Below, one piece after another: positions 1 to 35,255 of a stretch of DNA of 64,000 bases (its first letter is position 1; each line of letters opens with the position of its first letter). This DNA is from a bacterium (GTDB lineage: Bacteria > Patescibacteriota > Dojkabacteria > JAOAGR01 > JBAXGO01), in NCBI GenBank assembly GCA_037139335.1, contig JBAXGO010000001.1, positions 4,503-68,502 of the forward strand, read 5' to 3'. The translations under genes were made by a program, and so were the position numbers. The notes beneath the pieces were generated by a model that did not search any database, was not told the DNA's origin, and saw only the letters and a list, made by a program, of their open reading frames with translations.

Positions 1-1105
1 TGGTGTTTTGCCAAGAGTTCATGGATCTGCAATTTTTAATAGAGGTGAAACGCAGGTACTTAGTGTTGTTACATTGGGTTCTTCTAGATTAGAACAAATC
101 GTAGAGGGATTGGAAGGTGAGGGCACAAAAAGATATATGCATCACTACAATTTTCCTCAATTTTCCGTCGGTGAAGTTGATAGAAAATTTGGAATGGCAA
201 ATAGACGTGCAATCGGTCACGGAATTATTGGTGAAAAATCAATTTTACAAGTTCTTCCTGGTGAAGATAATTTCAAATATACAGTCAGAGTTGTCTCAGA
301 GGTTTTGGGCTCCAATGGTTCTACCTCAATGGCAGCCACATGTGGCTCTATGCTTGCTCTTCTAGATGCAGGTGTAAAATTAGAAGAACAAATTGCAGGT
401 ATATCCATGGGTTTGATTTATGAAGGAAATGGTAAATATGTCCTATTTACAGATATTATTGGTGATGAAGATCATTATGGTGATATGGATTTCAAGATTA
501 CAGGAACTAGAGATGGTTGGACTGCAATTCAGCTAGATAATAAACTTCAGGGAATTCCTGTTGAAATTTTGATAGAAGCTGTTGCTCAATCAAAGAAGAC
601 TAGAATACAAATACTTGATTATTTATTAACAGTTATCAATGCACCTAGAGAAGAACTTTCTCAATTTGCGCCAAGAATTACTACAATTAAAATTAATCCA
701 TCGAAAATTGGTGATGTTATTGGTCCTGGTGGTAAAGTAATTAAAGAAATTATTGCTCAATCAGGAGCCGAAATTGATATTGAAGATGATGGTTCAGTAA
801 ATATTGCTGCTTCATCAGAAGAAGCCTCAAAGAAGGCCATTGTTTTAATCAAAGAGGCTTTAAACGAAGTTGAACCGGGAACAATACTAGATGCAGTTAT
901 AAAAAGAGTTGAAACATATGGTGCATTTATCGAAGTAAATCGAAATTTTGGAGGACTTGTACATGTTTCACAATTGAGTGATGAATTTGTAAAAAATGCA
1001 GCAGATATTGTTAAAATTGGTGATAAAGTTAAAGTAAGATATGATGGCACTGATGAACAGGGAAGACATAATTTCTCGATGAAAGGTTTGGGATTAGCTA
1101 AGTAA
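1..1105 (+). CDS. pnp: Polynucleotide phosphorylase, C-terminal part (second RNase PH domain, KH and S1 domains). The 5' end lies outside the window.
   Basis: The ORF is open to the window edge. An RNase PH-like core is followed by a KH motif (IGDVIGPGGKVIKEI) and an S1 domain (GTILDAVIKRVETYGAFIEV). Confidence 0.9.
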   Translation, partial: GVLPRVHGSAIFNRGETQVLSVVTLGSSRLEQIVEGLEGEGTKRYMHHYNFPQFSVGEVDRKFGMANRRAIGHGIIGEKSILQVLPGEDNFKYTVRVVSEVLGSNGSTSMAATCGSMLALLDAGVKLEEQIAGISMGLIYEGNGKYVLFTDIIGDEDHYGDMDFKITGTRDGWTAIQLDNKLQGIPVEILIEAVAQSKKTRIQILDYLLTVINAPREELSQFAPRITTIKINPSKIGDVIGPGGKVIKEIIAQSGAEIDIEDDGSVNIAASSEEASKKAIVLIKEALNEVEPGTILDAVIKRVETYGAFIEVNRNFGGLVHVSQLSDEFVKNAADIVKIGDKVKVRYDGTDEQGRHNFSMKGLGLAK

Positions 1106-1143
1106 AGTATGACAGAAAAACATGCATATGATATTATTTTCGC

Positions 1144-1539
1144 ATGAAAAGTAATTTAAACAAAAAAATAAGTAATTTATTAGTATCTGCTGTTGTAATA
1201 TTCTTCACAGCAGCAGATATTGTTCAGGCTAAATGCGGTATTGTCGCAGATCCTTTGGACCCAAATTGTACAGGTACTCCATCACTTGGCGATTTGGTTG
1301 GAGGATTTATTCCGTTTATTCCTATCGCAGTTGGTGTATTATTATTTGGAATGATAACCGTTGGAGCAGTTCAGATTACTATTGCTGGTCCAAATGATGA
1401 AGCTAAGAAAAAAGGAATTCAAACTATTCAAAATGCCATTGTTGGTGCTGTAATATTGTTTGTTTCAGTAGGCATAGTTTCATTAATTGAAGCTATTTTT
1501 GGTGTCAAACTTTTATATGGAGTAAATATTGGAAAATGA
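1144..1539 (+). CDS. Small secreted two-TM protein, TrbC/VirB2-like (T4SS pilin-like), member A1 of the paralog array
   Basis: Signal peptide, then a Cys pair (KCG..DPNCTG), then TM1, a charged loop (NDEAKKKGIQTIQNAI) and TM2. This is the topology typical of VirB2/TrbC pilins. Confidence 0.55.
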   Translation: MKSNLNKKISNLLVSAVVIFFTAADIVQAKCGIVADPLDPNCTGTPSLGDLVGGFIPFIPIAVGVLLFGMITVGAVQITIAGPNDEAKKKGIQTIQNAIVGAVILFVSVGIVSLIEAIFGVKLLYGVNIGK

Positions 1540-1937
1540 TTAAAAAAAATATACAAAAATTTAGTTTAATGTTTTTTTCTTTATTCCTTCTATCATCTAA
1601 TGTTTTTGCCGATTCGGATTGTGTGAAAAATAACCAAGTCCCTTCGCTTTGGGATCCGAATTGTACTGGCAAAACACCATCTATTGGCGATATTATCGCA
1701 GGAATTGTCCCAATAATTCCTACCTTAGTAGGTGCTTTACTTTTTGGTGTACTAATTTGGGGTGGAATTCAGATTTTTAGTGCGAATGCCAATGAAGAGG
1801 CCAAGAAAAAAGGCATCAAAACTATACAAAATGCTATTACAGGAATTGTATTACTCTTTTTATCAATTGCAATTATTACAATTATTGAATCAATACTAGG
1901 TCAAAAAATATTATTTGGTGTCTTTGTAAATAAATAA
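1536..1937 (+). CDS. TrbC/VirB2-like pilin-like protein, paralog A2
   Basis: Close paralog of A1 with the same signal-Cys-TM-loop-TM layout (DPNCTG, EEAKKKGIKTIQNAI). Its start overlaps the A1 stop by 4 nt. Confidence 0.55.
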   Translation: MIKKNIQKFSLMFFSLFLLSSNVFADSDCVKNNQVPSLWDPNCTGKTPSIGDIIAGIVPIIPTLVGALLFGVLIWGGIQIFSANANEEAKKKGIKTIQNAITGIVLLFLSIAIITIIESILGQKILFGVFVNK

Positions 1938-1943
1938 AGATTT

Positions 1944-2720
1944 ATGAAAGTTTATAAAAATATAATCAAATTAAGTATATTTTTAATATTACTCTTTTCT
2001 TCATTTAATTTCGCATTTGCTGCTCCAGTGCCAACTACTACTACAGTTACTCCTATGCAATATGCGAAAACAACTCCATGTCCTAGAGTTGGTACTACAA
2101 ATAGTTCTGGAAGTGTTGTTACATACGATGAATACGAAAAATGTCTTGAAATTGAAAGTGGTGCAAATAAAATAAATGCGAGTGGTTTTTTTCCCAATTT
2201 TAATTTTAACGATATTATAGGTGTTGTAACTACAATATTATTAGCTTTACTAGTAATAATTTTAACATTCAAAATAGTGCTTGCCGCTTTTAAATGGGCA
2301 AATAATGATGGTCAAGATAAGAATAAGAAAGATGCTATTAAAAGTATTAGTAATGGAATTGTTGGTTTGATAATATCTTTTTCAGCTTATTTCGTTATAA
2401 TTATTATAAGAGGCTTTTTCAATATCGACACTCAGTTGATACAGTGTAGTAACCTGTATTTTAAAAATGCTACGTCTTATGAAAATAATTCTAGTGCTGC
2501 ATCGATAACGACATCAGAGTCAGAATTCAAAAAATGCATAGATTTAGCTGGTAAAACTAATGTATTATCAGATAGCACAAAATATTCTGGTTTTATATCA
2601 AATATTCAAAAAAATTGTTCACCAAAATATTATGAATATTTATCTTCTACAAAGGAAATAAAGGTTTATGATAATCAGAAACTTAATCAATGTTTTGCTG
2701 ATGAATTGAAAAAATTATGA
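1944..2720 (+). CDS. Pilin-like two-TM protein with a ~100-aa Cys-containing C-terminal extension, paralog B1
   Basis: Signal peptide and a Thr-rich N-terminal segment (PVPTTTTVTP). A TM-loop-TM core carries FKWANNDGQDKNKKDAIKSISNGIVG. The C-terminal domain has 4 conserved Cys and ends in QCFADELKKL. Confidence 0.5.
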   Translation: MKVYKNIIKLSIFLILLFSSFNFAFAAPVPTTTTVTPMQYAKTTPCPRVGTTNSSGSVVTYDEYEKCLEIESGANKINASGFFPNFNFNDIIGVVTTILLALLVIILTFKIVLAAFKWANNDGQDKNKKDAIKSISNGIVGLIISFSAYFVIIIIRGFFNIDTQLIQCSNLYFKNATSYENNSSAASITTSESEFKKCIDLAGKTNVLSDSTKYSGFISNIQKNCSPKYYEYLSSTKEIKVYDNQKLNQCFADELKKL

Positions 2721-3418
2721 AAAAAATAAGTAAATTTATAATAATATTATTAACATCTTTTACATTAGTAAATATTGTTTCTGCGGCTACTCCTTGTCCT
2801 GCAGGAGATCAATCAGCAGATTGTGTCTCAAATGGCTTTGGTTTTGATGCAATAGATCTTAGAAGATTCTTTCCAAGTTTATCTTTTAATGATGTAATTT
2901 CTAGTACGGCAACGATTATTTTAATAGGATTGGTGATATTATTTGGTTTTAGAATAATTCTTGCAGGTTTCAAATGGGTTAATAATGACGGTCAGGATAA
3001 AAGTAAAAAAGATGCATTGAAAGGAATTATTAATGGAGTTGTTGGTATTGCGATTACATTTTCAGCATATTTTATAGTTTTATTCGTAAGGTCTTTGACA
3101 GCTGGTAATGATCAGCTTGTAAATTGTGCTAATCTTTATTATCGTGATACCAATTCATACATTACTAATTATAATGCTGGGGTGGCAGATACTTTTGGAA
3201 ATGCATCAGAAGAATTTACAAGGTGTATGAAGTTAGCTGGCTGGGCAGATACACTATCTGCTAGTGGAAAATTTAGTACTTTTACCACGAATCTAGATAA
3301 TAATTGCAAACAATATCTTACTTCGTCTCCAAACTCGAGTGGAATTGTGAAAGGGATTGAGATTAAAGATAAAAATAATTTACAACAATGTTTTGTTAAT
3401 GAACTAAAGAAATTATGA
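2717..3418 (+). CDS. Pilin-like two-TM protein with a Cys-containing C-terminal extension, paralog B2
   Basis: Paralog of B1 with core loop FKWVNNDGQDKSKKDALKGIINGVVG, conserved Cys in the C-domain and the ending QCFVNELKKL. It overlaps the B1 stop by 4 nt. Confidence 0.5.
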   Translation: MKKISKFIIILLTSFTLVNIVSAATPCPAGDQSADCVSNGFGFDAIDLRRFFPSLSFNDVISSTATIILIGLVILFGFRIILAGFKWVNNDGQDKSKKDALKGIINGVVGIAITFSAYFIVLFVRSLTAGNDQLVNCANLYYRDTNSYITNYNAGVADTFGNASEEFTRCMKLAGWADTLSASGKFSTFTTNLDNNCKQYLTSSPNSSGIVKGIEIKDKNNLQQCFVNELKKL

Positions 3419-4104
3419 AAATAAAATCAATAAAATATATTTCCATTGTATCGTTAGGTTTGCTCGGGGCTTCTAGTATTTCAAATGCAGAAACGACTAC
3501 TTGCAAAGATAGTTTTGCTCCGAAGTTTATATGTGAAAAATTCGCAGATATTACTACAAATTTCACATTTGGTTCAGTGCTTGATATGTTTTTTTCTATA
3601 GCTATTGCGGCACTTGTTGTTTTTATCTTATTTCAAATTGTGAAGGCAATCTTCAAATGGGTCTCTAAATCTGGTGATGAAAAAGAACGATCAGGGGCAA
3701 TTAAATCAATCTCAAATGCAGTTGCCGCAGGTATTGCTTTATTAGTTCTATTATTCGTAGTCCCATTATTTACTGATTTATTAAATATTGGTGGTAAACC
3801 AAATCCAGCGTATGTCTGTTATTCGGCTACAAGTTCTACTATGACACAGGCTAATATAGATCAGGAGACAGGTGCCTTGAATTCTGGTGTTAGTGCTTCT
3901 GAATTATCTGGAGGCATCGCATATGAAGGCAAAGCAAAAGGCGGAACTAAGAATAATAAAACAGCAGATTTTATAACTTTAACTGCGGATAATAAAGACA
4001 CAGTGGATTTTTTGAGCACAAAAATGTATTGCAAGGACAAAGATACTGGTGATGAGTATAAAGATGGATATGTTGTTTTGAAGAGAGTTGGGATCAAAAA
4101 GTAG
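3415..4104 (+). CDS. Pilin-like two-TM protein with a C-terminal extension, paralog C1
   Basis: Signal peptide and a Cys pair (TTCKD..FICEKF). The TM-loop-TM core carries FKWVSKSGDEKERSGAIKSISNAVAAG, followed by a ~100-aa C-terminal domain with 2 Cys. Confidence 0.5.
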   Translation: MKIKSIKYISIVSLGLLGASSISNAETTTCKDSFAPKFICEKFADITTNFTFGSVLDMFFSIAIAALVVFILFQIVKAIFKWVSKSGDEKERSGAIKSISNAVAAGIALLVLLFVVPLFTDLLNIGGKPNPAYVCYSATSSTMTQANIDQETGALNSGVSASELSGGIAYEGKAKGGTKNNKTADFITLTADNKDTVDFLSTKMYCKDKDTGDEYKDGYVVLKRVGIKK

Positions 4105-4175
4105 TCAAATAGTGTATGGTATTGTATAATTAATGCTTTAGTTTTAATATATCTTAATTAATTTTTTACATATAT

Positions 4176-4865
4176 ATGAATAAGAATAGTATAAAGTATT
4201 CTGTAGCCGCAGGAGCTGTTTTAGTAGCTAGTACATCTGTTGCTCATGCTGAAGATATTAGTTGTGATGGTTCATTGGTTCCTCAAGTCTGCAAAATATT
4301 CGCAGGAGCAGGAAGTTTCTCAGTAAGTGGTATATTACAGTCAGTTTTTGCTGTAGTTATTGCTATACTCGTCATTTTTATATTATTCCAAATTGTCAAA
4401 GCCGTATTTGATTGGGTTGGCAAATCAGGTGATGAAAAAGCAAGAAGTGCTGCAATCAAATCAATTACAAATGCAGTAGTTGCAGGTATCGTATTATTAG
4501 TTGCAATCTTGATTGTTGTTGTAGGATCAAGTCTTTTGAACATTGGTACACCAGCCGTTAATTATGTTTGTGTTGCTTCATCAACTCTTCCTAGCGGAGC
4601 CGCAAATCTAACGGCAAGAGGTACATTACTTTCTGGCAATTTGAAAGAACTTCCTGATGTACAAGCTCAAGAAGGAGCAGGCGTAAACAATAAATGGAAT
4701 GAAGGTTCTGCTTATGATAAATATATTAAAGGAACTACTGGGGCTGATGAGGACGTAGTCTCAGCATTAAAGAAAGTAAAATGTGTTCAGACATCTGGTG
4801 AAAGTAGTGGTAAAGAATATTCACCTAATTACTGGGTTGTTGCTAAAGTAGGTTTGAAAAAGTAA
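4176..4865 (+). CDS. Pilin-like two-TM protein with a C-terminal extension, paralog C2
   Basis: Paralog of C1 (ISCDG..QVCKIF; FDWVGKSGDEKARSAAIKSITNAVVAG). The array ends in an intrinsic terminator at 4879-4920. Confidence 0.5.
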   Translation: MNKNSIKYSVAAGAVLVASTSVAHAEDISCDGSLVPQVCKIFAGAGSFSVSGILQSVFAVVIAILVIFILFQIVKAVFDWVGKSGDEKARSAAIKSITNAVVAGIVLLVAILIVVVGSSLLNIGTPAVNYVCVASSTLPSGAANLTARGTLLSGNLKELPDVQAQEGAGVNNKWNEGSAYDKYIKGTTGADEDVVSALKKVKCVQTSGESSGKEYSPNYWVVAKVGLKK

Positions 4866-4878
4866 ATTAAGTCTTTTT

Positions 4879-4920
4879 AATAGGTCTTGTACTGAGAGGT
4901 ATGAGACCTATTTGTTTTTT
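4879..4920 (+). terminator. Rho-independent terminator closing the pilin-like array
   Basis: Stem taggtct/agaccta followed by tttgtttttt. Confidence 0.6.
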
Positions 4921-4969
4921 ATCGCAACTTATTTTATTATTCTAAAGATAACTAAACTGTCAAAATTAA

Positions 4970-6817
4970 ATGTTCAAACGTTTTAATGCCCAAAACGCTG
5001 ATGGAGAGCTGTATACTGCTTTGGATTTTTCTGGTTCAAATGCTTTTTTGTATTTTGCAAAAGATGGAGATATATCTATCTTGCGAAAATTTATTCAATT
5101 AAGCTGGGCTAGTACTTCTGAAGATGGTCTATCGCTAACACTAAATCTTAATTCGAGTGATCATACTATTTCTTCCACTCCTGATAATATTTATTTAGAT
5201 GAAAATGTTGCCAAAATTAGTGCCATGGAATCCTTTTATGGTATTGGATATTCGGATTATTCTAAATTATTTGTTATCACATATACACAGCTTTTGAATC
5301 TTGAACTAGGACGAATTCCTTTTCAACAATATTTAAATAGGTATGTCTTTCATAAACCAGATTCCAAATCTTATTATTCACCAGTTGAAGATATTTTTTA
5401 TGATATTGAGCAAGCCAGAAAATATAGTGGTGATAATTCAGCATCAACATTAAAAAAAGAAAAAAATGATATTTCTGAAAAATCTGAAATTTTAAGAAAA
5501 AAAATTAAAGATTTAGAAAATATAAATTTGGATAATGATATAGATGTAAATATTGATGAAAAAATAAATAATCTTGAAAAAAAATTAGGAGATCAAAAAA
5601 AACAAGATGAGTATGTTGGCCGTAAAGAAGTTTTGGTAGAAGAATTAAAAAGTATTAATGAAAAAATAAAACAATACGAGGTAGCTCTTAACAAAGTTTC
5701 AAAAGTTGATATTGATATGGTGAAATACAATAACTTTATGAGGTTAAATGTTCAGAGAGTAGAGAATGACTTATCTATGTTTCTATATCGTATTCGAGAA
5801 AGAGAAAAAGTCCTTTCAGATTTAGCTAATATCCATGTACAGTATCAAGCCTCTGATTCAAAACATTTGGCATATCTTCCGTTTATTATATTATTAATAA
5901 TATCTATAAGTGTTGGATTGACATTGAGCTTTATAGCAGATCCATTTGTTGGTGCTGTTTTAGGATCGATAATGTTAGTCTTAAGTTTGTTCTTTCTAAT
6001 ATTTTTCAAATCTTCTGGCAAAGTAAAGCCAAATGAATTAAGCCGAGATAAAGTATCGGCTATTGCAAATGAAATAGATGCTTTGAAATCAGCCAAGCAA
6101 AGGTATCTTCAAAATATGGGCTTTCAAAACGAAGATGATTATTTTGCTACGAAAGCACTTGTTAGAGCTTTGTTATTTCAAAAGGAAAATGATTTAGCCA
6201 AAATTCATGAGAAATTTGAAGGTAAAGAACTTAGTGATTATAAATATTTATATTCAGAAAAAAATAAAAAAATAGTAGATTTGCAGATTGAGATTGATAA
6301 ATTTGGGCCTATAATTTCTCCCGAAGAATATATTAGGAAAAAACGAGAGCTAGATATGCTCAAATTAGAAAAATCAGCAACTATTACTAATTATTCAGTT
6401 GAAGATAATTCCAAACAAATTGAAGAGCTTAAAAGAGAACTTGATACACTTCTTACGTCAAACAATGGAAATCTAGTAAATAATCCACTCGATGTTTATT
6501 TACGAATATTGCGAGAATATTTCGAAGATGAAAATATTCAGGCAAATAATGAGTATGTTCTTGATAATAAACAAATTAATTCATATGAAGAAAAGGTCGA
6601 GATGTTAATTATTCAAAGATATGCATATTTGATGTCCAATTTTCCTGATTCAAATCTTCCTATTTATCTAGAAGATCCTTTTGCTGGTGTCGAAAATAAA
6701 AATATTATCAATAAAATAATTAATTTTTGTTCAAAAAATAAACAAGTTATTCTAATATCTGAACATGATAATTATAAAGATTTAGGATTGAAAGTTTTAA
6801 ATCTTTCTTCTAATTAA
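4970..6817 (+). CDS. SMC/SbcC-like coiled-coil membrane protein with degenerate ATPase head motifs
   Basis: N-terminal domain with a Walker-A-like but non-canonical FSGSNAF. Long coiled coils (K/E/N-rich heptads) are interrupted by two TM helices (LAYLPFIILLIISISVGL..., AVLGSIMLVLSLFFLIFF). The C-terminal lobe has a Walker-B-like IYLEDPFAGVE and an H-loop-like QVILISEHDN. Confidence 0.45.
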   Translation: MFKRFNAQNADGELYTALDFSGSNAFLYFAKDGDISILRKFIQLSWASTSEDGLSLTLNLNSSDHTISSTPDNIYLDENVAKISAMESFYGIGYSDYSKLFVITYTQLLNLELGRIPFQQYLNRYVFHKPDSKSYYSPVEDIFYDIEQARKYSGDNSASTLKKEKNDISEKSEILRKKIKDLENINLDNDIDVNIDEKINNLEKKLGDQKKQDEYVGRKEVLVEELKSINEKIKQYEVALNKVSKVDIDMVKYNNFMRLNVQRVENDLSMFLYRIREREKVLSDLANIHVQYQASDSKHLAYLPFIILLIISISVGLTLSFIADPFVGAVLGSIMLVLSLFFLIFFKSSGKVKPNELSRDKVSAIANEIDALKSAKQRYLQNMGFQNEDDYFATKALVRALLFQKENDLAKIHEKFEGKELSDYKYLYSEKNKKIVDLQIEIDKFGPIISPEEYIRKKRELDMLKLEKSATITNYSVEDNSKQIEELKRELDTLLTSNNGNLVNNPLDVYLRILREYFEDENIQANNEYVLDNKQINSYEEKVEMLIIQRYAYLMSNFPDSNLPIYLEDPFAGVENKNIINKIINFCSKNKQVILISEHDNYKDLGLKVLNLSSN

Positions 6818-7677
6818 AGATTCTTCAAAACAATTTGAGTCTTTGGGGTTGTTTTTCCTTTCTTAATCTTTGTATACTTGATGGTGCTGGAAAGGTTCTT
6901 GTGGCCAACTATTTGTGATAGTTTCAAAATATTTTCACCGTTTTTAATATGGTGATATATAAAAGTATTTCGAAGATCGTTGACTGTTGCATTCGTTATC
7001 TTGGCTTTTTTCATTGCTCGGCTGATATATGTGCGAGCGTTTCTTATGATAATTGGTTTCCCTGCTTTAGTGACAAAAACATAACTGTTCTTCTGTGTAT
7101 TTGGTCTGACATCAAAATACATTGAGATTGCATCAGTTGCTGCTGAATTTAATGGAACTGTACGAGATGGGGTGCTTTCATTTTTTTCGATTCTTACTGC
7201 ATAAGGTTTCGTTTTAGATTTATAGCATATATCGCTAACTTTTAGCCTACATAATTCTCCAATTCTAATGCCAGTTTGTAAAAGAAGTTCTATCATTGCA
7301 TAAGTTCTAATATCTTTCAAACAAGAATTCCTAAGCTTAGTATATTCTTCTTTTGTTAAATATCTAGGAGCTTTTTCTTTAATTTTTGGATGATGTATGT
7401 TTTCTGAAGGATCTTTTTTAATATAATTTTGCTCCTTCATATGTTTGAAGAATGACCGTATACTGTTTATTTTTCTTGAAATACTTTTTAAATCGTAGTT
7501 TGCTTTTTTTAAAATTGCAATGTATTTTTTTATTCCATCTTCATCTACATCTTTCAATTTAAGTACTTGTAGCGTGGTGAATAATTGTTCAATGTCTTTT
7601 ACATACGCTTGTACAGTATATGCGGATTTTCCGTTCTCTTCTAGAAAGTTTTTATATTTGTTTATATAAGTCTTCAC
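6814..7677 (-). CDS. xerD: Tyrosine site-specific recombinase, XerC/XerD-like (phage integrase family)
   Basis: N-terminal SAM-like domain (AYTVQAYVKDIEQLF). The C-terminal catalytic domain has the R...H..R...Y residues (LRNTF, VGHKNLSSTIKYTKI). Its stop overlaps the stop of the convergent upstream gene. Confidence 0.75.
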   Translation of the reverse strand: MKTYINKYKNFLEENGKSAYTVQAYVKDIEQLFTTLQVLKLKDVDEDGIKKYIAILKKANYDLKSISRKINSIRSFFKHMKEQNYIKKDPSENIHHPKIKEKAPRYLTKEEYTKLRNSCLKDIRTYAMIELLLQTGIRIGELCRLKVSDICYKSKTKPYAVRIEKNESTPSRTVPLNSAATDAISMYFDVRPNTQKNSYVFVTKAGKPIIIRNARTYISRAMKKAKITNATVNDLRNTFIYHHIKNGENILKLSQIVGHKNLSSTIKYTKIKKGKTTPKTQIVLKNL

Positions 7678-7739: not shown

Positions 7740-8159
7740 ATGAACAAAAATCATAAGGATTATACACAATTTATCAAATCTTCAAAAGGGTTGAAATCAA
7801 TTCTTATGTTTATAGTCTTCCTAATTTTGTTTAGTGGACTAGCTGTATTTCTAGTTGTTCAATATAATCAAACAGTATCAAAAAGCAATCAACTTCAAAT
7901 ATTAGAAAATGAACTAAAAGCTGAAAAACAGAGAAATGACGAGCTAAAATTACAGAAAGAAGACGTTAAATCTGATACATATATTGAAAAAGAAGCAAGA
8001 AATAAACTAGGATATTCATATCCAAATGAAAATTTATATATACTAAAAAAAATTGTCGATAGTTCTGTTTCACCAATTGAAAGTAATCCTGTATTATCAT
8101 TAGCTCAGGAAAATAAATCTCCAATTCAGAAATGGATGGATCTAATATTTGGACAATAG
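7740..8159 (+). CDS. ftsB: Septum formation initiator (FtsB/DivIC family)
   Basis: N-terminal TM, a coiled coil and the conserved YIEKEARNKLGYSYPNE motif. Confidence 0.7.
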   Translation: MNKNHKDYTQFIKSSKGLKSILMFIVFLILFSGLAVFLVVQYNQTVSKSNQLQILENELKAEKQRNDELKLQKEDVKSDTYIEKEARNKLGYSYPNENLYILKKIVDSSVSPIESNPVLSLAQENKSPIQKWMDLIFGQ

Positions 8160-16889: not shown

Positions 16890-17028
16890 CACGATGCTTT
16901 ATCAAAACTAAAGCGTTTTTCAATAAGGTTTTCTGATTGAAATCCCAAATGATCATTAACAATCTACAAGTGGTAAGAGTGCAATTTGAAACATAATTGC
17001 AAAAATATTTTTTCGTCAATTTATACTA

Positions 17029-18603
<1,575 letters not shown>

Positions 18604-18880
18604 TTAAAGGAGCTTTGAATCAGATCACACTGATTCATCAAAAATTTATAAAATACATTGTAATTCGATTGAAAAAATACTCTTACCGCTTGTAGGCAGT
18701 TAATGATCTTTTTTCTTTTTCAAAGTTAAAAAGTTCATAAGTTAAATAGGTTAGTATGTTATTGTTACCCTGAGCTTGTCAAACCAACACCATGACAACT
18801 ATTTTTGTTAAATTTTCTTCACTAGTTTTTTCTTCCTAAACGCATTACCATTTACTCTTAACTTTTAATTCTTAACTGAT

Positions 18881-19222
18881 ATGCAGGTAATACTAAAAAG
18901 TGACTCCGTTGAGTACCATAATGCATCTTCATGTACAGCGATAGAATATCCATCAAATGAAAAAGATATTAATATTGCGGGAATTATTATAAACGGCCGT
19001 TATCCCGAAACTGGTCTTGCTTATAACAAGGTTTGTAAGCTCATGGCTTATGTAGTAAAAGGTAGTGGAAAACTTGTCGTAGAAAGCCTAGAGGTTGTCT
19101 TAAATATAGGTGATGTCGTTACTATTAATCCAATGGAAAAGTACTACTGGGAAGGCTCTATGGAGCTAATAATGCCAAGTGTACCAGCATGGACACCAGA
19201 TCAATATATACATGAGGAATAA
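18881..19222 (+). CDS. Small cupin-fold protein (no metal-binding His motif)
   Basis: 113 aa with a beta-barrel-like pattern (GDVVTINP...). It lies between 16S and tRNA-Ile. Confidence 0.4.
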   Translation: MQVILKSDSVEYHNASSCTAIEYPSNEKDINIAGIIINGRYPETGLAYNKVCKLMAYVVKGSGKLVVESLEVVLNIGDVVTINPMEKYYWEGSMELIMPSVPAWTPDQYIHEE

Positions 19223-19410
19223 ATCTTGAATATTAGATCGATAAAAGATAAATTCCGTGAAATTTAAATGATTTTTATGGCTGAATTATTTACGCGTGAG
19301 TTATACGAAAAGATTAGTGATAATTCACATTATGTTTATGTAACTATACAAAAACGAGAATCCGAAGATGAGCAACCGAAAATCATGTTTTAGAGTTTAA
19401 TTTTGGAGCT

Positions 19411-19734
19411 ATGCTTGGAGATAGATCTAAAATAATAATTAAGTCGTTATCAGAGTTGTTAAAACAAGGATATGCTGAAATTAGTAGAGGAGATCTTTTA
19501 TTCGAAAGACCTAAACAGGGTGAGGAAATAATTCAAAATGGTGATTCTTTTTTGAGAACACATTTCATTACGGTCACTGGAAATGAAAGCGGTTCAGTAG
19601 TTGAAAATGGGCGTAGAGCAACTTGTATGGCAATTCAAAATATTGTTGGAGATAATGTTGGTGTTGTAGGAAAAATTGGTTTTGAATCTCGTGTTGTTTA
19701 CGATACACAAAAAATACCTATAATTAAGCCTTAG
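19411..19734 (+). CDS. Hypothetical protein
   Basis: 107-aa ORF between 16S and tRNA-Ile with no motif recognised. Confidence 0.35.
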   Translation: MLGDRSKIIIKSLSELLKQGYAEISRGDLLFERPKQGEEIIQNGDSFLRTHFITVTGNESGSVVENGRRATCMAIQNIVGDNVGVVGKIGFESRVVYDTQKIPIIKP

Positions 19735-19900
19735 AATATTGTTTAATAGTTATTGATAATTATCAGCTTTACTGGTAACATTCTTTTGCTGTTTTTCAAA
19801 ACGGTTCTTTCTTTTTTGTAATATTTAGGAACTGTATTTAGGAAGACATAGATTGAGTTTATAGTATTCGTTATTGGCGGTTGCAGAAAGATATGGTTAC

Positions 19901-19977
19901 GGGCGATTAGCTCAGCTGGTTAGAGCGCAGTCCTGATAAGACTGAGGTCCTTGGTTCGAGTCCAAGACCGCCCACCA
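19901..19977 (+). tRNA. tRNA-Ile (GAU)
   Basis: Cloverleaf with anticodon loop ctGATaa and a TTCGAGT T-loop. CCA is encoded. Confidence 0.9.
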
Positions 19978-20055
19978 TTTGTCAGTTAACAGTTTAAAAT
20001 TAAAAATTAAGAGTTTTGGCACAGTATTCAGAAAAACAACTTTTAATTGATTTTG

Positions 20056-20131
20056 GGGCCCTTAGCTTAGCTGGTAGAGCGCCTCGTTTGCAACGAGGAG
20101 GTCAGGAGTTCGAATCTCCTAGGGTCCACCA
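20056..20131 (+). tRNA. tRNA-Ala (UGC)
   Basis: Anticodon loop ttTGCaa and the G3:U70 identity pair. CCA is encoded. Confidence 0.9.
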
Positions 20132-20136
20132 TAAAG

Positions 20137-20160
20137 AAATCCCGTGAGGGATTTTTTGCT
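20137..20160 (+). terminator. Rho-independent terminator immediately after tRNA-Ala
   Basis: aaatccc-gtga-gggattt followed by tttgcttttt. Confidence 0.7.
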
Positions 20161-20211
20161 TTTTATAAAAACTTCACAGTAGAAAAATGTCTTTAGTGTT
20201 AATTTATTGTT

Positions 20212-20487
20212 ATGAAAACAAAAATAGTTGATCTAATAACCAAGTCCTTCCAGCCAGAATCAATATTTAATTACGGTTCTCGGGCCAGAACGGATTGTCT
20301 TGATAAAAGTGATTACGATATTGGTGTTATCTTTTCGGATGCAAACTTTGTTAGCAGAATGGCTTTGAAGAAAGCTATTAATTTAGATGGCGTTAGTGCT
20401 TATCCTTTTCACTTAAATGATTTCAAGAATGGAATGATTGATACTCCATTTCAAAAAAGTATCTTTAGTAATATTTCAAAAACATAA
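20212..20487 (+). CDS. Minimal nucleotidyltransferase (MNT/Pol-beta superfamily), possibly truncated by a frameshift
   Basis: The GS-x9-DxD motif YGSRARTDCLDKSDYDIGV is present. The ORF ends just after an A6 run. Confidence 0.55.
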   Translation: MKTKIVDLITKSFQPESIFNYGSRARTDCLDKSDYDIGVIFSDANFVSRMALKKAINLDGVSAYPFHLNDFKNGMIDTPFQKSIFSNISKT

Positions 20488-20701
20488 GTTTGCTATTACA
20501 TACGACGAAATTATTAAAGAGTCGGAATTATTAAAATTGCGGAAATACACTGAACTAGTTGCTAATGCATATAAAGTTAGGTTGGGAGAAATGAAAGTCT
20601 ATGAATCTGATCTTTATAAAAATATCTCTTATATTAATAAATTCATAGAACCAAAATTTATGGATTTATATCAATGTTCTGGGGATATTCAATTAATATA
20701 A
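20438..20701 (+). CDS. Hypothetical ORF in the +1 frame overlapping the MNT 3' end by 50 nt. It may be the frameshifted continuation or a HEPN-like partner.
   Basis: It has no ATG start (the track uses TTG). It overlaps the MNT gene and no RxxxxH motif was seen. Confidence 0.3.
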   Translation: MILHFKKVSLVIFQKHKFAITYDEIIKESELLKLRKYTELVANAYKVRLGEMKVYESDLYKNISYINKFIEPKFMDLYQCSGDIQLI

Positions 20702-21002
20702 AAATTTCTGCGTTGCTCAAATATTGGTTTGTCGAGTATTTTAGTAGCTAAATGTATAAAAAATTTCCATTATTAGTTCTCATAGCTAAACTATGATACG
20801 TAATATTATCTAGTATTAAGCCTTTCTGTCGATATCTATCATTCCAGAATTGCTTTTCATTTTATAAAAATATTATTGGTGGTATTAATTGCACAACTTT
20901 ATAAATCGTTTGTTATAAAAGATATCGTGGAAAAATGTGTGAACGTATGTGGGCAATAGGACTTGCGTGTTATAATCTATCATGCATTTAATATCCTCAT
21001 AA

Positions 21003-21356
21003 ATGTCAAACCCTCCACAAGCATCTGAAATATATGTACCTCGTTATTATATTGAAATCGCCAATAATAAAGGTGGATCGGCTCCTTCTTTTTTAGTTAA
21101 CCGTAATTTAACGCTAGCTATTTTAGAATTAGGTCGTAGTGAAAATATTTATGAATTAATTAATAATAGTATTCCAGTCCCAGAGCTTCTGAAAAGAGTA
21201 GATAGGTTCTTTGCTTTTGGCGATAAATTTGGATGGAATAAAACAAGAAAACTTCAAGTTATAAATGACGCAGGGCGAAGACCTTTCCTTCCTCAAGGTA
21301 TTGAACATAAAAAAGAAAAAATATTGAAGTATATGTTGCTAAATCGGGACTATTAG
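21003..21356 (+). CDS. Hypothetical cytoplasmic protein
   Basis: 117-aa ORF preceded by an extended -10-like tgtTATAAT at about 20966-20974. Confidence 0.45.
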   Translation: MSNPPQASEIYVPRYYIEIANNKGGSAPSFLVNRNLTLAILELGRSENIYELINNSIPVPELLKRVDRFFAFGDKFGWNKTRKLQVINDAGRRPFLPQGIEHKKEKILKYMLLNRDY

Positions 21357-21382
21357 GTCGTCAAACAATTAAGCTTGCACTG

Positions 21383-21757
21383 GTGGATTTTGTATCAGAA
21401 CCTACACAATCGGAAAGTAATGCCGGTTATAGAGAAGTTATTCGGTTACAATTTGGTAATCCATTTGGTGGTGATTCCGCTTTGATTGTTATTGGAAAAA
21501 AGATTCCTGGACAAAATAAATTATTATATTCTTATACTATTCGTGATACTAGATTTGATCCGTGGGTGCAAGTTTACATTTCTAATATAAATAATCCTGA
21601 TAATAGATTTGTAACGGAAAACGATGAGGTAGTCCGAGATATATCTTCATATGGATTTGAATATCAGACTGGATTCTTACAATATATGGGGATTCCAACT
21701 TTTTCAAGGCATGTTGGTGATTATTCTCCTGTATCGATTAAGAATAATAGAAATTAA
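21383..21757 (+). CDS. Hypothetical cytoplasmic protein
   Basis: 124-aa ORF 26 nt downstream of the previous one, probably the same operon. Confidence 0.45.
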   Translation: MDFVSEPTQSESNAGYREVIRLQFGNPFGGDSALIVIGKKIPGQNKLLYSYTIRDTRFDPWVQVYISNINNPDNRFVTENDEVVRDISSYGFEYQTGFLQYMGIPTFSRHVGDYSPVSIKNNRN

Positions 21758-21764
21758 TTATTAT

Positions 21765-22967
21765 TTAATCTACCCACACTGGAGTGTCAATTTCTGCCCA
21801 ATTATAAAGCCATTTTACATTTGTTAATGGTGTCCTGATGCAACCTAAACTTCCTCTGGTGTGATAGTCCATTCCTCCGTAATTAGTTGGAGTAGGGGTG
21901 TCGTGAATTCCATAATCTTGGTAAAAAGGCATCCAATAATTTACTAATACATCATAATTATGACCACTTGTGTCGACTCCTCTCAGATGTTCTTGTTCTT
22001 TTTTTTGAAATATCGCGAATTTACCTGTTACTGTTGGGGATAAATCTTTTCCAGTAGTTACTACTGTTGTAAAAACTGGAACTCCATACTCATATGCGTA
22101 CATCTTTTGATCAGCAATACTGATGTATATGAATTTTGGTGCGTTGTTTTTTGCGGTTGGAGCCTGAACGTTCTTTGCTTGATTATCTTTCTTTTGTTGC
22201 TCAATTTGTTTTTCTAATTCTTGTGCGGAAGATAATTGTGCAGATAAGTTAGGCGTATACACTGTTTTTACATCACTATATGCTATTGTTTTACCTTTCC
22301 ATTTGGTGAGTAAGTCAGAAACTTTCGATTTGTAATCTGTTAATGATGTTGCGATATTTTCTTTGGTTGGTACTGTTGAAAAATATTTTGCAAGTCTATT
22401 GGCTTCTGTTTCGTTAGTAAGTAATTCGTTGTATAGATTAATTTCTTTTGAAAAAGATAATTCAACTGCTAATTTTACGTCTAATTCGTAAACAGTGAAC
22501 GTATTAATATTAGGAATTGGTATTGAAGGGTTATTTAAAGCTTGTTTTAGTGAAGTATATTGGCTTTTTATCTCTTCATAACTTGGCAATTCTGTAGCTT
22601 CTGGCAAGCTCAAATTTTGTTCGATTTTATTTAATGTTTGTAATGTATTTTCTTTATAGTAATTTTTGTTATTAATTTCGATATCTTTCTTGTAATTTGA
22701 AAGTTCAGAATTAATGGACTTTAATTCGAAGATATATTTAATATTATTAATTTTATTTTTTGCTTCGCTCATAGCGACTTTTATTTCAGAATATTTATTA
22801 GAGTCAACATCCTTAATAAGGCTGATTGCAGATTCTATAGAATTAATAGAACTTGTTGCCTTATTGTTTTCGCTAATAAAGAACCATATGAAAGTTCCTA
22901 ATATTGTGACTACTATTAATACAATAGTAAGAAATGTGAATAATAGGATTGTTTTTATGTTTTTCAT
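21765..22967 (-). CDS. L,D-transpeptidase (YkuD domain) with an N-terminal TM and a coiled-coil region
   Basis: C-terminal YkuD catalytic motif (YGIHDTP...GSLGCIRTP). N-terminal membrane anchor and a long coiled coil. Confidence 0.75.
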   Translation of the reverse strand: MKNIKTILLFTFLTIVLIVVTILGTFIWFFISENNKATSSINSIESAISLIKDVDSNKYSEIKVAMSEAKNKINNIKYIFELKSINSELSNYKKDIEINNKNYYKENTLQTLNKIEQNLSLPEATELPSYEEIKSQYTSLKQALNNPSIPIPNINTFTVYELDVKLAVELSFSKEINLYNELLTNETEANRLAKYFSTVPTKENIATSLTDYKSKVSDLLTKWKGKTIAYSDVKTVYTPNLSAQLSSAQELEKQIEQQKKDNQAKNVQAPTAKNNAPKFIYISIADQKMYAYEYGVPVFTTVVTTGKDLSPTVTGKFAIFQKKEQEHLRGVDTSGHNYDVLVNYWMPFYQDYGIHDTPTPTNYGGMDYHTRGSLGCIRTPLTNVKWLYNWAEIDTPVWVD

Positions 22968-23561
22968 GCTTTTTGTGACTTCTCAAATAATGCCATGTTT
23001 TAATACATTCGTAAAGAGTAAAGATACTTACATATGTATAAAACTATAATATGATAATTATATTTCTATTTATTCAAATTATTCGTAAATTTTATCATAA
23101 TTTTGTTAAAAAATTGTAATATTTTGTATGTTTTTGTAATTATATGATTTTCAATCTTTATCTATCTGCATTAATGCCGTGATTATCTATGTTTTTTATG
23201 TATTAAATGTGTTGCATTTTGTAATAACATATGGTATATTTTCAGCCGATATGACGCTAATGTCCTCTATTCATAATACAAGTCAATTACCACGCGCGTA
23301 GTTAGACCTCTGTAGTGATATTATTCTTTATAGAACTGATAAATCTAAGTGTTGCGGTTTATGAATTATTATGATAATATCACCGTGCTTTGCTAATGTA
23401 AGTTATAAGTTGAAGATTAAGAAGTAAGTCTTCAGCTTGAAAGCTTGTAAAAGCAATCAAATGTTCCTTTAAAACTGAATAGGTTATTTTTGCAAAATTC
23501 AATTGAGTCTAATTATAAAACAAGTCTCTTGTTTTTGGTGGATTCATTGTTCGTAAATTTG

Positions 23562-26680
<3,119 letters not shown>

Positions 26681-26815
26681 ACAAATTTACGAATTTTTGC
26701 AAAAATTAGCCTGTTCAGTTTCAAAGGAATATATACTGAATTATTAGTGACAAATTAATAATTTAGTGATATACTCCCAGAGTGTTCATACGACAGTTAG
26801 TAATGCTGACTGTTG

Positions 26816-26931
26816 TATGGTCACTGTAGCGAAGCGGCACTACCTCTTCCCATACCGAACAGAGTCGTAAAACGTTTTTGCGCCGAAAATACTCGGACCT
26901 TAGGTCCCGGGAAAATAGGTCGTGGCCAGCC
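26816..26931 (+). rRNA. rrf: 5S ribosomal RNA
   Basis: CCCATACCGAACAGAG...GTAAAACG...GCGCCGA...TACTCGG resembles loops B and C of 5S. The terminal helix is tggtcac/gtggcca. Confidence 0.65.
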
Positions 26932-31389: not shown

Positions 31390-33201
31390 ATGGCTCGTAC
31401 TAAATTACTTACTGTAAATACTTCTGAGGATACTGAAATTCAAGAAAAAAAATCATTATCGAAACCAGGAAAAAAACCAACCATAAAATCTATCAAAGAT
31501 GAAATAAAGGTTGAAAAAAAAGTTAAACCAGTAAAGGAATTAGTGAAAAAAGCTATCGTTGAAAAAGTTTTAATAGAAGAGAAAACTATTGCTAACCAAG
31601 ACATTAAGCCCGTGGAAATAAATAAAGAGGTTGTTCAAGAAAAAGTTTCTAGTAATCAAATCGAAGAAAAAAATACAACTGTTGAAAAAACAAGAAGTGG
31701 TTTTGAAGGCCAGGTTATTAAACATGTGTCAAACGAAATGAAAAGACCATTTAATAATGATAGAAATAGACCTATGAGAAACCATGAAAACGGAAATTCT
31801 AATCAGTTCGGCAAGAAACCGTTCGATAATAAATACCAACAAAAAGGAAACTCAAACGTTCAAAATAATAGATCAATGCCGCCACAGTTTAATAATGCTA
31901 GTAATAACGGCAGTAATGTTTCAAAAAGTGTTCCACAGTTTACACCTTATAAAATCACAGATCTTGAAGGTAAGACTGTTGCGGAGCTTCGAGAGATTGC
32001 ATCAAAAATGAATCTTGAGGGAGTTGGTGAAATGAATAAGCATGATTTAATTATTTTTATTCTTGCAGCTGCTACTCAAAATCAAGGAAATAACATACTT
32101 GTGGAAGGTATATTGGAAATTATGGCTGATGGAACTCATGGTGTATTGAGATCTATGAAACTTTTACCATCAGAAAATGATGTTTATGTGTCTCTTTCTC
32201 AAATAAGAAGATTTAATATGAGAATGGGCGATTTTGTTGTTGGTCTTGCTAGACTTCCAAAAGATAATGAAAGATATTTATCTCTTCTTCGAGTTGATTC
32301 TATTAATGCTACTAAAGCAGAAGAAGCTACTAATAGACCGTATTTCGAAAGAATGACTCCAATATTTCCTAACAAGATAATGAATCTTGAAACAGAACCA
32401 GAAACACTATCTACTAGACTTATTGATTTATTATCTCCAATTGGTTATGGCCAAAGAGGTATGGTTGTTGCTCCGCCAAAAGCAGGTAAAACATGGCTTT
32501 TAAAAGACATTGCTAAAGGCATAAGCCAGAATCATCCTAATGCTCATTTAATGGTTGTTCTAATTGCAGAAAGACCCGAAGAAGTTACAGATATGGCACG
32601 TTTCGTGAAAGGTGAAGTTTTCGCTGCAAATTTTGATGAATCAGCAGAAGTTCAAGTTAAAGTCGCTGAGTTATCTTTGGAGAGAGCAAAAAGAATGGTC
32701 GAGTCTGGACATGATGTTGTAATTCTTCTGGACAGTATTACACGTTTGGCAAGAGCATATAATGTTGTAATGCCTACATCTGGAAGAACATTGTCTGGTG
32801 GTATGGATCCAATTGCTTTGTATCCACCAAAGAGATTCTTTGGGGCTGCACGTAATTTTGAAAATGGTAAAAGTTTAACAATTATTGCGACAGCTTTGGT
32901 TGATACTGGAAGTAAAATGGATGATGTTGTCTTTGAAGAATTCAAAGGTACAGGTAATATGGAGCTTCATTTGGATAGAGCATTATCTGAGAGAAGAGTA
33001 TTTCCTGCTATTAATATTAAAGAATCTGGTACTAGAAACGAAGATCTATTATTAGGTAAGGAGAATCTTGCTAAGATATGGAGCATTCGAAGACTGATTG
33101 ATGAAATGAAGACCATTGATGCTGTTTCAGCAATTGCCGATAGACTCAAAAAAACTAAAACTAATCAATCTTTTCTTGATACAATTCATGAAATAATCTA
33201 A
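31390..33201 (+). CDS. rho: Transcription termination factor Rho with a long N-terminal insertion domain
   Basis: RNA-binding domain, Walker A (PPKAGKT) and the Q- and R-loops. It is preceded by a ~200-aa K/E- and N/Q-rich low-complexity region. Confidence 0.92.
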   Translation: MARTKLLTVNTSEDTEIQEKKSLSKPGKKPTIKSIKDEIKVEKKVKPVKELVKKAIVEKVLIEEKTIANQDIKPVEINKEVVQEKVSSNQIEEKNTTVEKTRSGFEGQVIKHVSNEMKRPFNNDRNRPMRNHENGNSNQFGKKPFDNKYQQKGNSNVQNNRSMPPQFNNASNNGSNVSKSVPQFTPYKITDLEGKTVAELREIASKMNLEGVGEMNKHDLIIFILAAATQNQGNNILVEGILEIMADGTHGVLRSMKLLPSENDVYVSLSQIRRFNMRMGDFVVGLARLPKDNERYLSLLRVDSINATKAEEATNRPYFERMTPIFPNKIMNLETEPETLSTRLIDLLSPIGYGQRGMVVAPPKAGKTWLLKDIAKGISQNHPNAHLMVVLIAERPEEVTDMARFVKGEVFAANFDESAEVQVKVAELSLERAKRMVESGHDVVILLDSITRLARAYNVVMPTSGRTLSGGMDPIALYPPKRFFGAARNFENGKSLTIIATALVDTGSKMDDVVFEEFKGTGNMELHLDRALSERRVFPAINIKESGTRNEDLLLGKENLAKIWSIRRLIDEMKTIDAVSAIADRLKKTKTNQSFLDTIHEII

Positions 33202-34478: not shown

Positions 34479-35255
34479 ATGAGTTTTATAAGTGGTGAAA
34501 TAAAAAAATTAATGTTTACTCTTTTTGGTGCGGCTTTGTTGATGTTGGGCCTAGTCTGGGTTGCTGGTAATTCGCAGTCAATATTCACTATGTCAAAAAA
34601 AATTGTAAATACTATTACTGGTACTAAGCAATATTCTGATCAATATAAATATAATTTAGATAAGTCAAAAACATATTATCTAAATATTGATACAAATCTT
34701 GGAAAAATGTCTTTCCTTTTATACAAAGATAATGCTCCAAATACTGTGAATAATATTGTCAATTTAACGAAGGATAAATTTTATGATAATACGAAAAGTA
34801 TTGAAATCACTCCAAATTATATTTTAACTGGTAAAGGTTCTAGTAATTCAGAAACCGAATATCGAATTCGAGAAGAGATTAATGCAAATAGTTTGGGGTT
34901 GGACAGGACAACCGTTGGAGATAATTTCTCAATGTTATCAGAACATTTCAATCAACAAGTCTTGAATAAAAATAGTACATTGTCTGTTAAGGATTATTAT
35001 GTTTTAGAAGGATATTCGTATACGGAAAATATTACGTCAAAAAAAATCAAGAAAGGATCTCTAGTTATGTATTCTGAAGTTGCTAATGGTTTTGGTAATA
35101 AGTTTTTCATTTCTACCCAAAATAATCTACCAGCAATTGATGGTCGTATGACTAATTTTGGTGAAATTGTAAACGGTTCTGATGTTTTGGATAAAATTAT
35201 TGCATCTACATCCAAAAATGTTAAAATAGACTCAATTACCATAACAGAAAAGTGA
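34479..35255 (+). CDS. Membrane-anchored cyclophilin-type peptidyl-prolyl isomerase (divergent)
   Basis: N-terminal TM. Cyclophilin-like motifs KDNAPNTVNNIVNL...FYDNT and FGEIVNGSDVLDKI. Confidence 0.45.
   Translation: MSFISGEIKKLMFTLFGAALLMLGLVWVAGNSQSIFTMSKKIVNTITGTKQYSDQYKYNLDKSKTYYLNIDTNLGKMSFLLYKDNAPNTVNNIVNLTKDKFYDNTKSIEITPNYILTGKGSSNSETEYRIREEINANSLGLDRTTVGDNFSMLSEHFNQQVLNKNSTLSVKDYYVLEGYSYTENITSKKIKKGSLVMYSEVANGFGNKFFISTQNNLPAIDGRMTNFGEIVNGSDVLDKIIASTSKNVKIDSITITEK

Follow-up and report, generated by a model that had tools for sequence, protein, structure and literature searches.

A six-gene array of putative VirB2-like type IV secretion pilins in the chromosome of a probable Patescibacterium

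Arrays of VirB2-like pilins linked to type IV secretion systems (T4SS) form a described class in Patescibacteria. When 3,035 Patescibacteria genomes were searched with a set of profiles that included PF18895 and PF04956, VirB2-like pilins turned up in 1,948 VirB4-encoding genomes, with a pilin near virB4 in only 1,135 of these (i.e. apart in ~40%), and 441 arrays of 2–11 VirB2-like pilins were counted in 383 assemblies, where identity averages 25% and reaches at most 54% (PMC12102498). The same study counted about two VirD4-like genes per genome, mostly far from virB4 (PMC12102498). In Ca. Southlakia epibionticum ML1, six pilins of 103–185 amino acids (aa) are encoded by SEML1_0014-0019 inside the T4SS cluster SEML1_0006-0019, and each was scored essential (PMC10633639 Table S1; PMC12857230), while one more PF18895 gene, the seventh, is dispensable and sits immediately 3’ of rpsO (SEML1_0024 next to SEML1_0025). 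Reviews describe the role of the Patescibacteria T4SS as 'completely unknown' and raise a pilus-like conduit as a possibility (PMC12857230), and a cell-to-cell conduit of ~8.6 nm between a Patescibacterium and its host has been seen by cryo-electron tomography (PMC11880426). Here we analyse a 64-kb stretch of bacterial DNA (the window, to which all position numbers refer; flanking sequence was taken from the 142-kb source contig, ENA ERZ27300129 k141_247086), in which six adjacent open reading frames (ORFs), all on the + strand, span 1144-4865 directly 3’ of pnp. We consider it likely that they form a chromosomal array of VirB2-like T4SS pilins (PF18895) belonging to the pilin arrays known in Patescibacteria, and that their products are assembled by a T4SS. 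The host is a low-GC (~31%) bacterium which, as inferred from the DNA, is probably of the Patescibacteria, or Candidate Phyla Radiation (CPR), type.

The ORF coordinates agree with those of a first-pass annotation of the window, which had reported six same-strand genes after pnp. The genes are listed below, with ↓ marking a predicted signal peptidase cut and TM standing for transmembrane helix:

1144..1539, + strand: g1, predicted short (S) pilin, 131 aa; signal peptide with site VQA↓K, outer segment with two Cys, TM1, NDEAKKKG loop, TM2
1536..1937, + strand: g2, predicted short (S) pilin, 133 aa; ATGA overlap with g1
1944..2720, + strand: g3, predicted long-A pilin, 258 aa; signal peptide, 62-aa outer N-segment (two Cys), hairpin core, C-terminal domain of ~98 aa with four Cys
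2717..3418, + strand: g4, predicted long-A pilin, 233 aa; ATGA overlap with g3; C-terminal domain with four Cys
3415..4104, + strand: g5, predicted long-B pilin, 229 aa; ATGA overlap with g4; C-terminal domain of ~104 aa with two Cys
4176..4865, + strand: g6, predicted long-B pilin, 229 aa; C-terminal domain with two Cys

The layout is the same in all six proteins: an N-terminus rich in Lys leads into a hydrophobic stretch and an AXA cleavage motif, after which come a segment that holds exactly two Cys and then two TM helices with a loop rich in K, D and E between them. The predicted cleavage sites, from g1 to g6, are VQA↓K, VFA↓D, AFA↓A, VSA↓A, SNA↓E and AHA↓E. Signal peptides and TM helices were called by heuristics only (AXA sites, hydropathy peaks and K-rich loops), both in the six and in their orthologues from a related lineage (r1-r6, see below), and by these heuristics every one of them has the arrangement of a VirB2-like pilin, namely a cleavable signal peptide followed by two TM helices with a short basic loop. 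The loop itself reads N(D/E)EAKKKGI.TIQNAI in g1/g2, FKW(A/V)NNDGQDK.KKDA(I/L)K in g3/g4 and F(K/D)WV.KSGDEK.RS.AIKSI in g5/g6. At the sequence level the genes fall into three pairs, g1/g2, g3/g4 and g5/g6, with 49, 45 and 41% identity within pairs and 20–31% between them. The layout, the loop motifs (quoted essentially correctly) and the three-pair structure had all been given in the first-pass annotation, and our analysis bears them out.

The pairs also differ in size, as g3-g6 bear ~100 extra aa after TM2, in which the conserved Cys number four in g3/g4 and two in g5/g6, giving three subunit classes: S (short), A (long, four Cys) and B (long, two Cys). Cys numbers are even, the residues occur in outer segments only, and they are kept in r1-r6. 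Overlaps of 4 nucleotides (nt; ATGA) join g1/g2, g3/g4 and g4/g5, the last being a between-pair junction, while g5 and g6 do not overlap and are separated by a 71-nt spacer; the earlier statement that such overlaps occur within each pair is thus right for the first two pairs and wrong for the third. For g2, an alternative start at 1569 was chosen by a gene caller, which would give a protein of 122 aa, and g3 appears in NCBI as hypothetical protein WCJ19_00035. None of the six N-termini carries the type IV pilin signature: all are classical Sec signal peptides with AXA sites, without a G↓F/M-T-L-I-E motif. The Pam pili of CPR bacteria, with their Ig-like fold and donor-strand exchange, were also considered and are not related to the array proteins.

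Profile comparisons support the assignment of the six to VirB2-like T4SS pilin paralogues, a check that had been suggested along with the original proposal. PF18895 (T4SS_pilin; curated gathering cut-off 26.6 bits) is the best Pfam match for all six proteins, and g1 (29.4 bits) and g2 (34.2 bits) score above the cut-off. Searching 1.84 billion representative proteins with a profile of g3/g4 gave 602 matches, all but nine of them over the hairpin core only; 39 of 40 sampled matches are PF18895 proteins (best E-value 7e-20), and eight of the 40 also match PF04956 (TrbC/VirB2; cut-off 27.9 bits). Conversely, a hidden Markov model built from those 40 outside proteins found all six array proteins, at 35–102 bits, and no other ORF of the window. 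Profiles of the long-A and long-B proteins are homologous over the core (hhalign probability 98.6%, E-value 5e-16). The A-type C-terminal domain is rare, being present at full length in nine clusters at 50% identity among the 1.84 billion representatives, but PF18895 proteins with other N- or C-terminal extensions are found in the same list of matches, so modularity per se is not unique to this lineage. Two proteins of ~1,050 aa (P0029 and P0057), which matched the pilin C-terminal domain over 10–12 weak stretches, are highly repetitive and probably spurious translations, and were discarded; as a side observation, their case shows that summed multi-domain HMMER scores can mislead.

Several results weigh against the proposed identity. 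Scores for g3-g6 lie under the PF18895 cut-off (20.8, 23.0, 25.2 and 21.3 bits, respectively), with E-values from 2e-5 to 4e-4 (4e-4 for g3), and PF04956 is not matched directly, g4 alone being listed at 7.0 bits and an E-value of 9.4. We found no sequence match to any solved pilin structure, and a tblastn search of g2 against 72,556 plasmids gave no match. AlphaFold models are poor (predicted local distance difference test, pLDDT, 58–59), and fold searches with them return generic helical hairpins only; the best pilin fold match of the low-confidence g3 model, 8dfu (Aeropyrum conjugative pilus), is not significant (E-value 5, probability 0.41, TM-score to target 0.56 over 74 columns). Genes for VirB4, VirB3, VirB6 and VirB8 were not found from ~10 kb upstream to ~72 kb downstream of the array, a search that covers ~82 kb of the 142-kb contig. 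The host has no close relative among GTDB species representatives (long-B pilin patterns gave no match there), and its polynucleotide phosphorylase (PNPase) is 48–55% identical to GTDB sequences from many phyla, without a clear nearest one. Finally, the literature searched contains no observation so far of a VirB2-type pilus on a Patescibacterium.

This last point would also suit a different explanation, in which the proteins stay in the membrane and form no filament, the hairpin serving as an anchor or as part of a T4SS channel and the C-domains of g3-g6 being displayed as adhesins or receptors, much like the hairpin proteins of Mollicutes conjugative elements. In its favor, g2 weakly matches the NCBIfam model NF045849 (pilin-like protein of a Mycoplasma integrative and conjugative element (ICE), Mbov_0395; E-value 4e-6) and g5 weakly matches NF045848 and NF045889 (TM proteins of Mycoplasma ICEs, Mbov_0396/MMCAP2_0566; E-values ~2e-6), although these scores, 26–27 bits, are far from the cut-offs of 40–90 bits and may be inflated by TM composition. 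Moreover, the Patescibacteria T4SS derives from the monoderm MPF-FATA class, which is without pili (PMC12102498), and a globular domain of 100 aa on each subunit would, in our judgment, be awkward to pack in a VirB2-type helix. At the same time, g1 and g2 lack an outer domain that could be displayed and are yet conserved like housekeeping proteins, which fits a role as a structural polymer, and the published view is that such arrays may build a pilus-like structure (PMC12857230). Taking these points together, we regard a purely membrane-resident role as unlikely and favor assembly of the array products by a T4SS.

Related loci, compared where their contigs allowed, show that the array is not peculiar to this contig. 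It lies 3’ of rpsO-pnp in five related lineages, and PNPase is 71–76% identical among the four lineages compared. The gene content, with classes given in order, is:

Window: S S A A B B, followed by the gene for the 615-aa protein described below
L003: S S A A B B, followed by a 613-aa gene
L172: S S A A, up to the contig end
L174: S A B B, then a gene like the 615-aa one
L176: S A A, two presumed B (from order, size and one weak PF18895 match), followed by a 618-aa gene and, in convergent orientation, a VirD4-like gene

Composition is thus stable across the five lineages, with 4–6 genes in the same S-A-B order. In the one lineage that was fully compared, all six paralogues have one-to-one orthologues, with identities of 58% (g1-r1), 61% (g2-r2), 46% (g3), 52% (g4-r4, P0007), 51% (g5-r5, P0009) and 61% (g6-r6). 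For all six, orthologue identity (46–61%) is above within-pair paralogue identity (41–49%), narrowly so for g3 (46 vs 45%), which places the duplications before the split of the lineages. Between orthologues the hairpin core is 63–83% identical and the C-terminal domains 32–47%, with the Cys kept, compared with 68–72% for housekeeping proteins. This asymmetry between core and C-domain fits a constrained structural core with faster-evolving exposed domains.

The first-pass annotation had read the locus as an amplification, perhaps of a variable surface antigen, and a related possibility is that it represents a host-range family produced by gene amplification, comparable to the virB2 paralogues of Anaplasma and Bartonella. 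The faster evolution of the outer C-domains would be in keeping with this, as would the published speculation that pilin diversity could help adaptation to different hosts (PMC12102498). However, all six genes retain one-to-one orthologues at ~70% housekeeping identity, their S-A-B order is stable, and the only DNA repeats of the locus are ~75%-identical remnants of the paralogues; a scan for repeats revealed no high-identity repeats, inversion sites, silent cassettes or significant inverted repeats flanking gene segments. One-to-one orthology, together with the low identity of these repeats and the lack of inversion sites, argues that the array, judged from its sequence, is old and fixed and not a recent amplification or a variable antigen. 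Furthermore, each of the six S. epibionticum pilins is individually essential, and hence not redundant, which by analogy speaks for non-redundant subunits here as well. We therefore consider antigenic variation largely refuted and extremely improbable, and conclude that the six are non-redundant, differentiated subunits, not interchangeable variants. A shufflon or phase-variation system, which a tyrosine recombinase nearby could have suggested, was likewise rejected, as there are no inverted repeats and the recombinase gene and its neighbor divIC also occur together in a locus without pilins (L132).

The recombinase pair deserves a brief description of its own. A XerC/D-like tyrosine recombinase gene (6814-7677, - strand) and divIC (7740-8159, + strand) form a divergent pair, which is conserved in the array-bearing lineages whose contigs show that side, except for L176. 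In the distant locus L132 (11448-12818) the pair adjoins a VirD4-like gene, with no pilins between. The pilin block and its housekeeping neighbors may fill a variable interval between two anchors, recombinase-divIC and the VirD4-like gene.

Between the array and this pair lies one further gene, for a candidate partner protein:

4970..6817, + strand: 615-aa protein; N-domain, coiled coil, two central TM helices, coiled coil, ABC/SMC-like C-terminus

In each of the four lineages whose contigs show that end, it is the next gene after the array (gaps of 17–124 nt), and the remaining ~165 loci fetched, none of which carries an array, do not have it. The C-terminus retains what appears to be a Walker-B/H-loop remnant (LPIYLEDPF...ILISEHD), and residues 551-605 give weak PDB profile matches to ABC ATPases (LptB-type; E-value ~0.04). 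The conserved N-domain has a degenerate Walker-A-like stretch, 'LDFSGSNAFLYFAKDGD', and no P-loop. No Pfam or NCBIfam family was found for the protein, and defence-system and NCBIfam searches of it and of other unannotated ORFs produced noise only. It looks like an inactivated SMC/ABC-type protein that would be anchored in the membrane at the apex of its coiled coil.

The array lies in ordinary chromosome of ~31% GC, and the adjacent gene is:

8..1105, + strand: 3’ part of pnp (polynucleotide phosphorylase); the full gene, on the source contig, encodes RNase_PH, KH and S1 domains

Other genes of the window are those for a tyrosine recombinase, divIC, ftsH, polA, an rRNA operon, clpC, rho, comEA/comEC, mreBCD-pbp2 and dprA, as well as ribosomal protein genes, dnaX and recR, and the 10 kb past its right end hold housekeeping genes only. 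The first-pass annotation had noted that VirB4, VirD4 and VirB6 are missing from the window, and a Pfam search likewise did not find them there among the ORFs that are 120 aa or longer, lie outside the array and are not contained in a longer ORF. It had also pointed out that a complete T4SS immediately upstream of pnp would make this an ordinary conjugation locus; on the source contig that position is occupied by rpsO, the gene for the CCA-adding enzyme, a glycosyltransferase gene, uvrB and the gene for an alpha/beta hydrolase. No VirB5 or VirB1 and no relaxase was seen near the array.

A T4SS-type gene is nevertheless close by. At 9.3 kb upstream of g1, outside the window (L091 1-676, ~8.2 kb left of position 1), there is a gene for a protein of ~790 aa made up of DUF8128, DUF87 and TraG-D_C, whose C-terminus shows a TraG-D_C-like region with the Walker B motif 'YLYVDEFQNF'. 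Since a 61%-identical homologue passes the Pfam cut-offs for TrwB_AAD_bind, T4SS-DNA_transf and TraG-D_C, we take the protein to be a homologue of VirD4/TrwB-type coupling proteins. Homologues lie in L132 (8177-10627) and L176 (14146-16497), and genes 55–64% identical to it occur on hundreds of groundwater and sediment metagenome contigs. The gene is near the array in two lineages, at different positions, and in L176 it is directly beside the array and convergent with it, whereas only one of 80 loci carrying this ATPase has a pilin gene nearby. The description of the array as an orphan, which the first-pass annotation made for the window and which is correct there, is weakened by this neighbor just outside: it holds in part, for VirB4, VirB3 and VirB6 within ~82 kb, and not for VirD4-like genes.

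Could the array be a self-contained new surface system, consisting of the S-A-B pilins, the 615-aa protein and the VirD4-like ATPase and independent of a VirB4-based T4SS cluster? The constant linkage of the 615-aa gene to the array, and its absence from the ~165 fetched loci without one, is what such a system would predict, as are a VirD4-like gene nearby in two lineages and a VirB4 that was not found in the ~82 kb around the array. However, that negative covers ~82 of the 142 kb of the contig, VirD4-like genes occur at ~2 per genome in nearly all Patescibacteria, usually at a distance from virB4, with S. epibionticum able to dispense with them, and this particular ATPase has a pilin gene nearby in just one of 80 loci. 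The 615-aa protein, for its part, has neither a P-loop nor a detectable family. Full independence is therefore very unlikely in our view. A weaker version, in which the S/A/B set and the 615-aa protein, perhaps with the VirD4-like ATPase, would be a module building a heteromeric VirB2-type tube with disulfide-bonded outer domains, at least partly independent of a virB4 cluster and possibly of the ~8.6-nm conduit kind, we consider quite unlikely. Going by gene position, the 615-aa protein might act as an accessory factor, and so might the VirD4-like ATPase nearby.

Expression signals were sought around the array by consensus scanning, with the following candidates:

1109..1137, + strand: promoter-like site before g1 (consensus scan); ATGACA, 17 nt, TG-n-TATTAT extended -10
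4102..4130, + strand: promoter-like site in the g5-g6 spacer (consensus scan)
4879..4922, + strand: terminator-like hairpin of 15 pairs (four G-C), then the T-run TGTTTTTTAT

The ATG of g1 is 38 nt after the pnp stop codon (1105). The extended -10-like box before it reads TG-a-TATTAT (region 1132-1146) and ends 6 nt 5’ of the ATG, and the TATGATATTAT box is partly conserved in related loci. Given a box only 6 nt from the start codon and no visible Shine-Dalgarno motif, the g1 transcript may be leaderless; an obvious Shine-Dalgarno motif was not found at any of the six genes. In the g5-g6 spacer, the promoter-like TGTATAAT box (extended -10 TATTGTATAAT, 4120-4130) is conserved in the four lineages aligned (the window, L003, L174 and L176). 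The hairpin and T-run after g6 agree with the closing terminator named in the first-pass annotation; in the relatives just 17–38 nt separate the last pilin gene from the next gene.

These observations allow a tentative outline of how the array could work. It would be transcribed from the two predicted promoter-like sites, and its products, going by their sequence signals, would be exported via Sec and cleaved by signal peptidase I. Each mature protein would then be a two-helix hairpin in the membrane, with its N-segment and C-terminus outside and its K-rich loop in the cytoplasm, a topology that follows from a cleaved signal peptide and two TM helices and is supported by the occurrence of paired Cys in the outer parts only. 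By analogy with other Patescibacteria, a T4SS encoded elsewhere, of the monoderm, VirB4-based type typical of the group, may extract the subunits from the membrane into a heteromeric pilus-like tube or conduit for contact with a host cell. In such a structure g1/g2 might make up the main body, while the long-A and long-B pairs might place disulfide-bonded C-domains of ~100 aa on the outer surface or tip, as modules for adhesion or recognition.

Some other features of the window, unrelated to the array, are recorded here. Its rRNA operon (17022-26931) is split by protein-coding genes: 16S (17022-18603) is followed by two small ORFs and by tRNA-Ile and tRNA-Ala (19901-20131), then by five ORFs, including a nucleotidyltransferase-like ORF of 91 aa (20212-20487) and an L,D-transpeptidase gene (YkuD, 21765-22967) on the opposite strand, and finally by 23S (23562-26684) and 5S. 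The 23S gene has 3,123 nt vs 2,925 nt in the model, which implies ~200 nt of insertions, and the 16S gene 1,582 vs 1,533 nt. Rho (31390-33201) is extended by ~190 aa at its N-terminus, MreB is encoded by two paralogous genes (39605-40600 and 45634-46695), and competence genes are present (comEA and comEC, 35252-37163; dprA, 49744-50793). Just past the window is an S6-SSB-S18 cluster followed by a peptidase gene, not by L9. The Rho extension, the MreB paralogues, the competence genes and an S6-SSB-S18 cluster without L9 fit a reduced, CPR-like genome.

In the single species tested, epibiotic growth requires the Patescibacteria T4SS and its pilin array, which gives the composition of such arrays some interest. 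Ancient, differentiated paralogues that are conserved one to one argue for a heteromeric structure and against antigenic variation, and fast-evolving, disulfide-bonded outer domains would be natural candidates for host recognition. The tight linkage of an uncharacterised coiled-coil membrane protein to the array provides a lead for cultivable relatives.

Among described systems, the most distant comparison is with the archaeal conjugative pili of the Ced/Ted type (PDB 8dfu, Aeropyrum pernix), an example of a VirB2-like hairpin pilin outside diderm bacteria, to which the match was not significant. The Mollicutes ICE proteins Mbov_0395 (~80 aa) and Mbov_0396/MMCAP2_0566 (~310 aa) are likewise short and long hairpin membrane proteins, linked to a monoderm T4SS of MPF-FATA type, but they belong to a mobile conjugative element while the present array sits among housekeeping genes, and the scores are below cut-offs. 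With the TrbC/VirB2 pilins of diderms (A. tumefaciens VirB2, RP4 TrbC and F TraA) the array proteins share a signal peptide, two hydrophobic helices and a basic loop, which in solved conjugative pili lines the lumen. Homology to this family (PF04956) is transitive, through the eight of 40 g3/g4 relatives that match it; unlike classical VirB2, the proteins described here have extra outer domains, come from a host that is probably monoderm and give no direct significant match. The virB2 arrays of Anaplasma phagocytophilum, Bartonella and Rickettsia resemble the present one in tandem multiplication and divergence of pilin genes in a host-dependent bacterium (cited in PMC12102498), but they are read as antigenic or host-range variation, whereas here the paralogues are ancient, orthologous between lineages and differentiated into S, A and B.

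The closest likeness is to the PF18895 arrays of Patescibacteria, namely that of S. epibionticum and the 'Sec secreted array' of Ca. Nanosynbacter lyticus TM7x, which are also tandem, same-strand sets of hairpin proteins with a signal peptide and two TM helices. Six tandem genes with mutual identities of 20–49% are what we find here, and the S. epibionticum array shares with this one the number of six genes, the low identity of paralogues, a chromosomal location, the lack of a relaxase nearby and a PF18895 gene after rpsO. It differs in that here VirB4, VirB3 and VirB6 were not found from -10 to +72 kb, a 615-aa gene adjoins the array, and four of the six proteins, at 229–258 aa, have lineage-restricted, Cys-containing C-domains. 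The earlier suggestion of a surface structure 'of its own kind' is thus unsupported, since tandem arrays of 2–11 diverged pilins have already been published for Patescibacteria (PMC12102498). What is new here is the synteny with rpsO-pnp, the three subunit classes with fast-evolving C-domains and the linked 615-aa gene, within a class of system that is already known.

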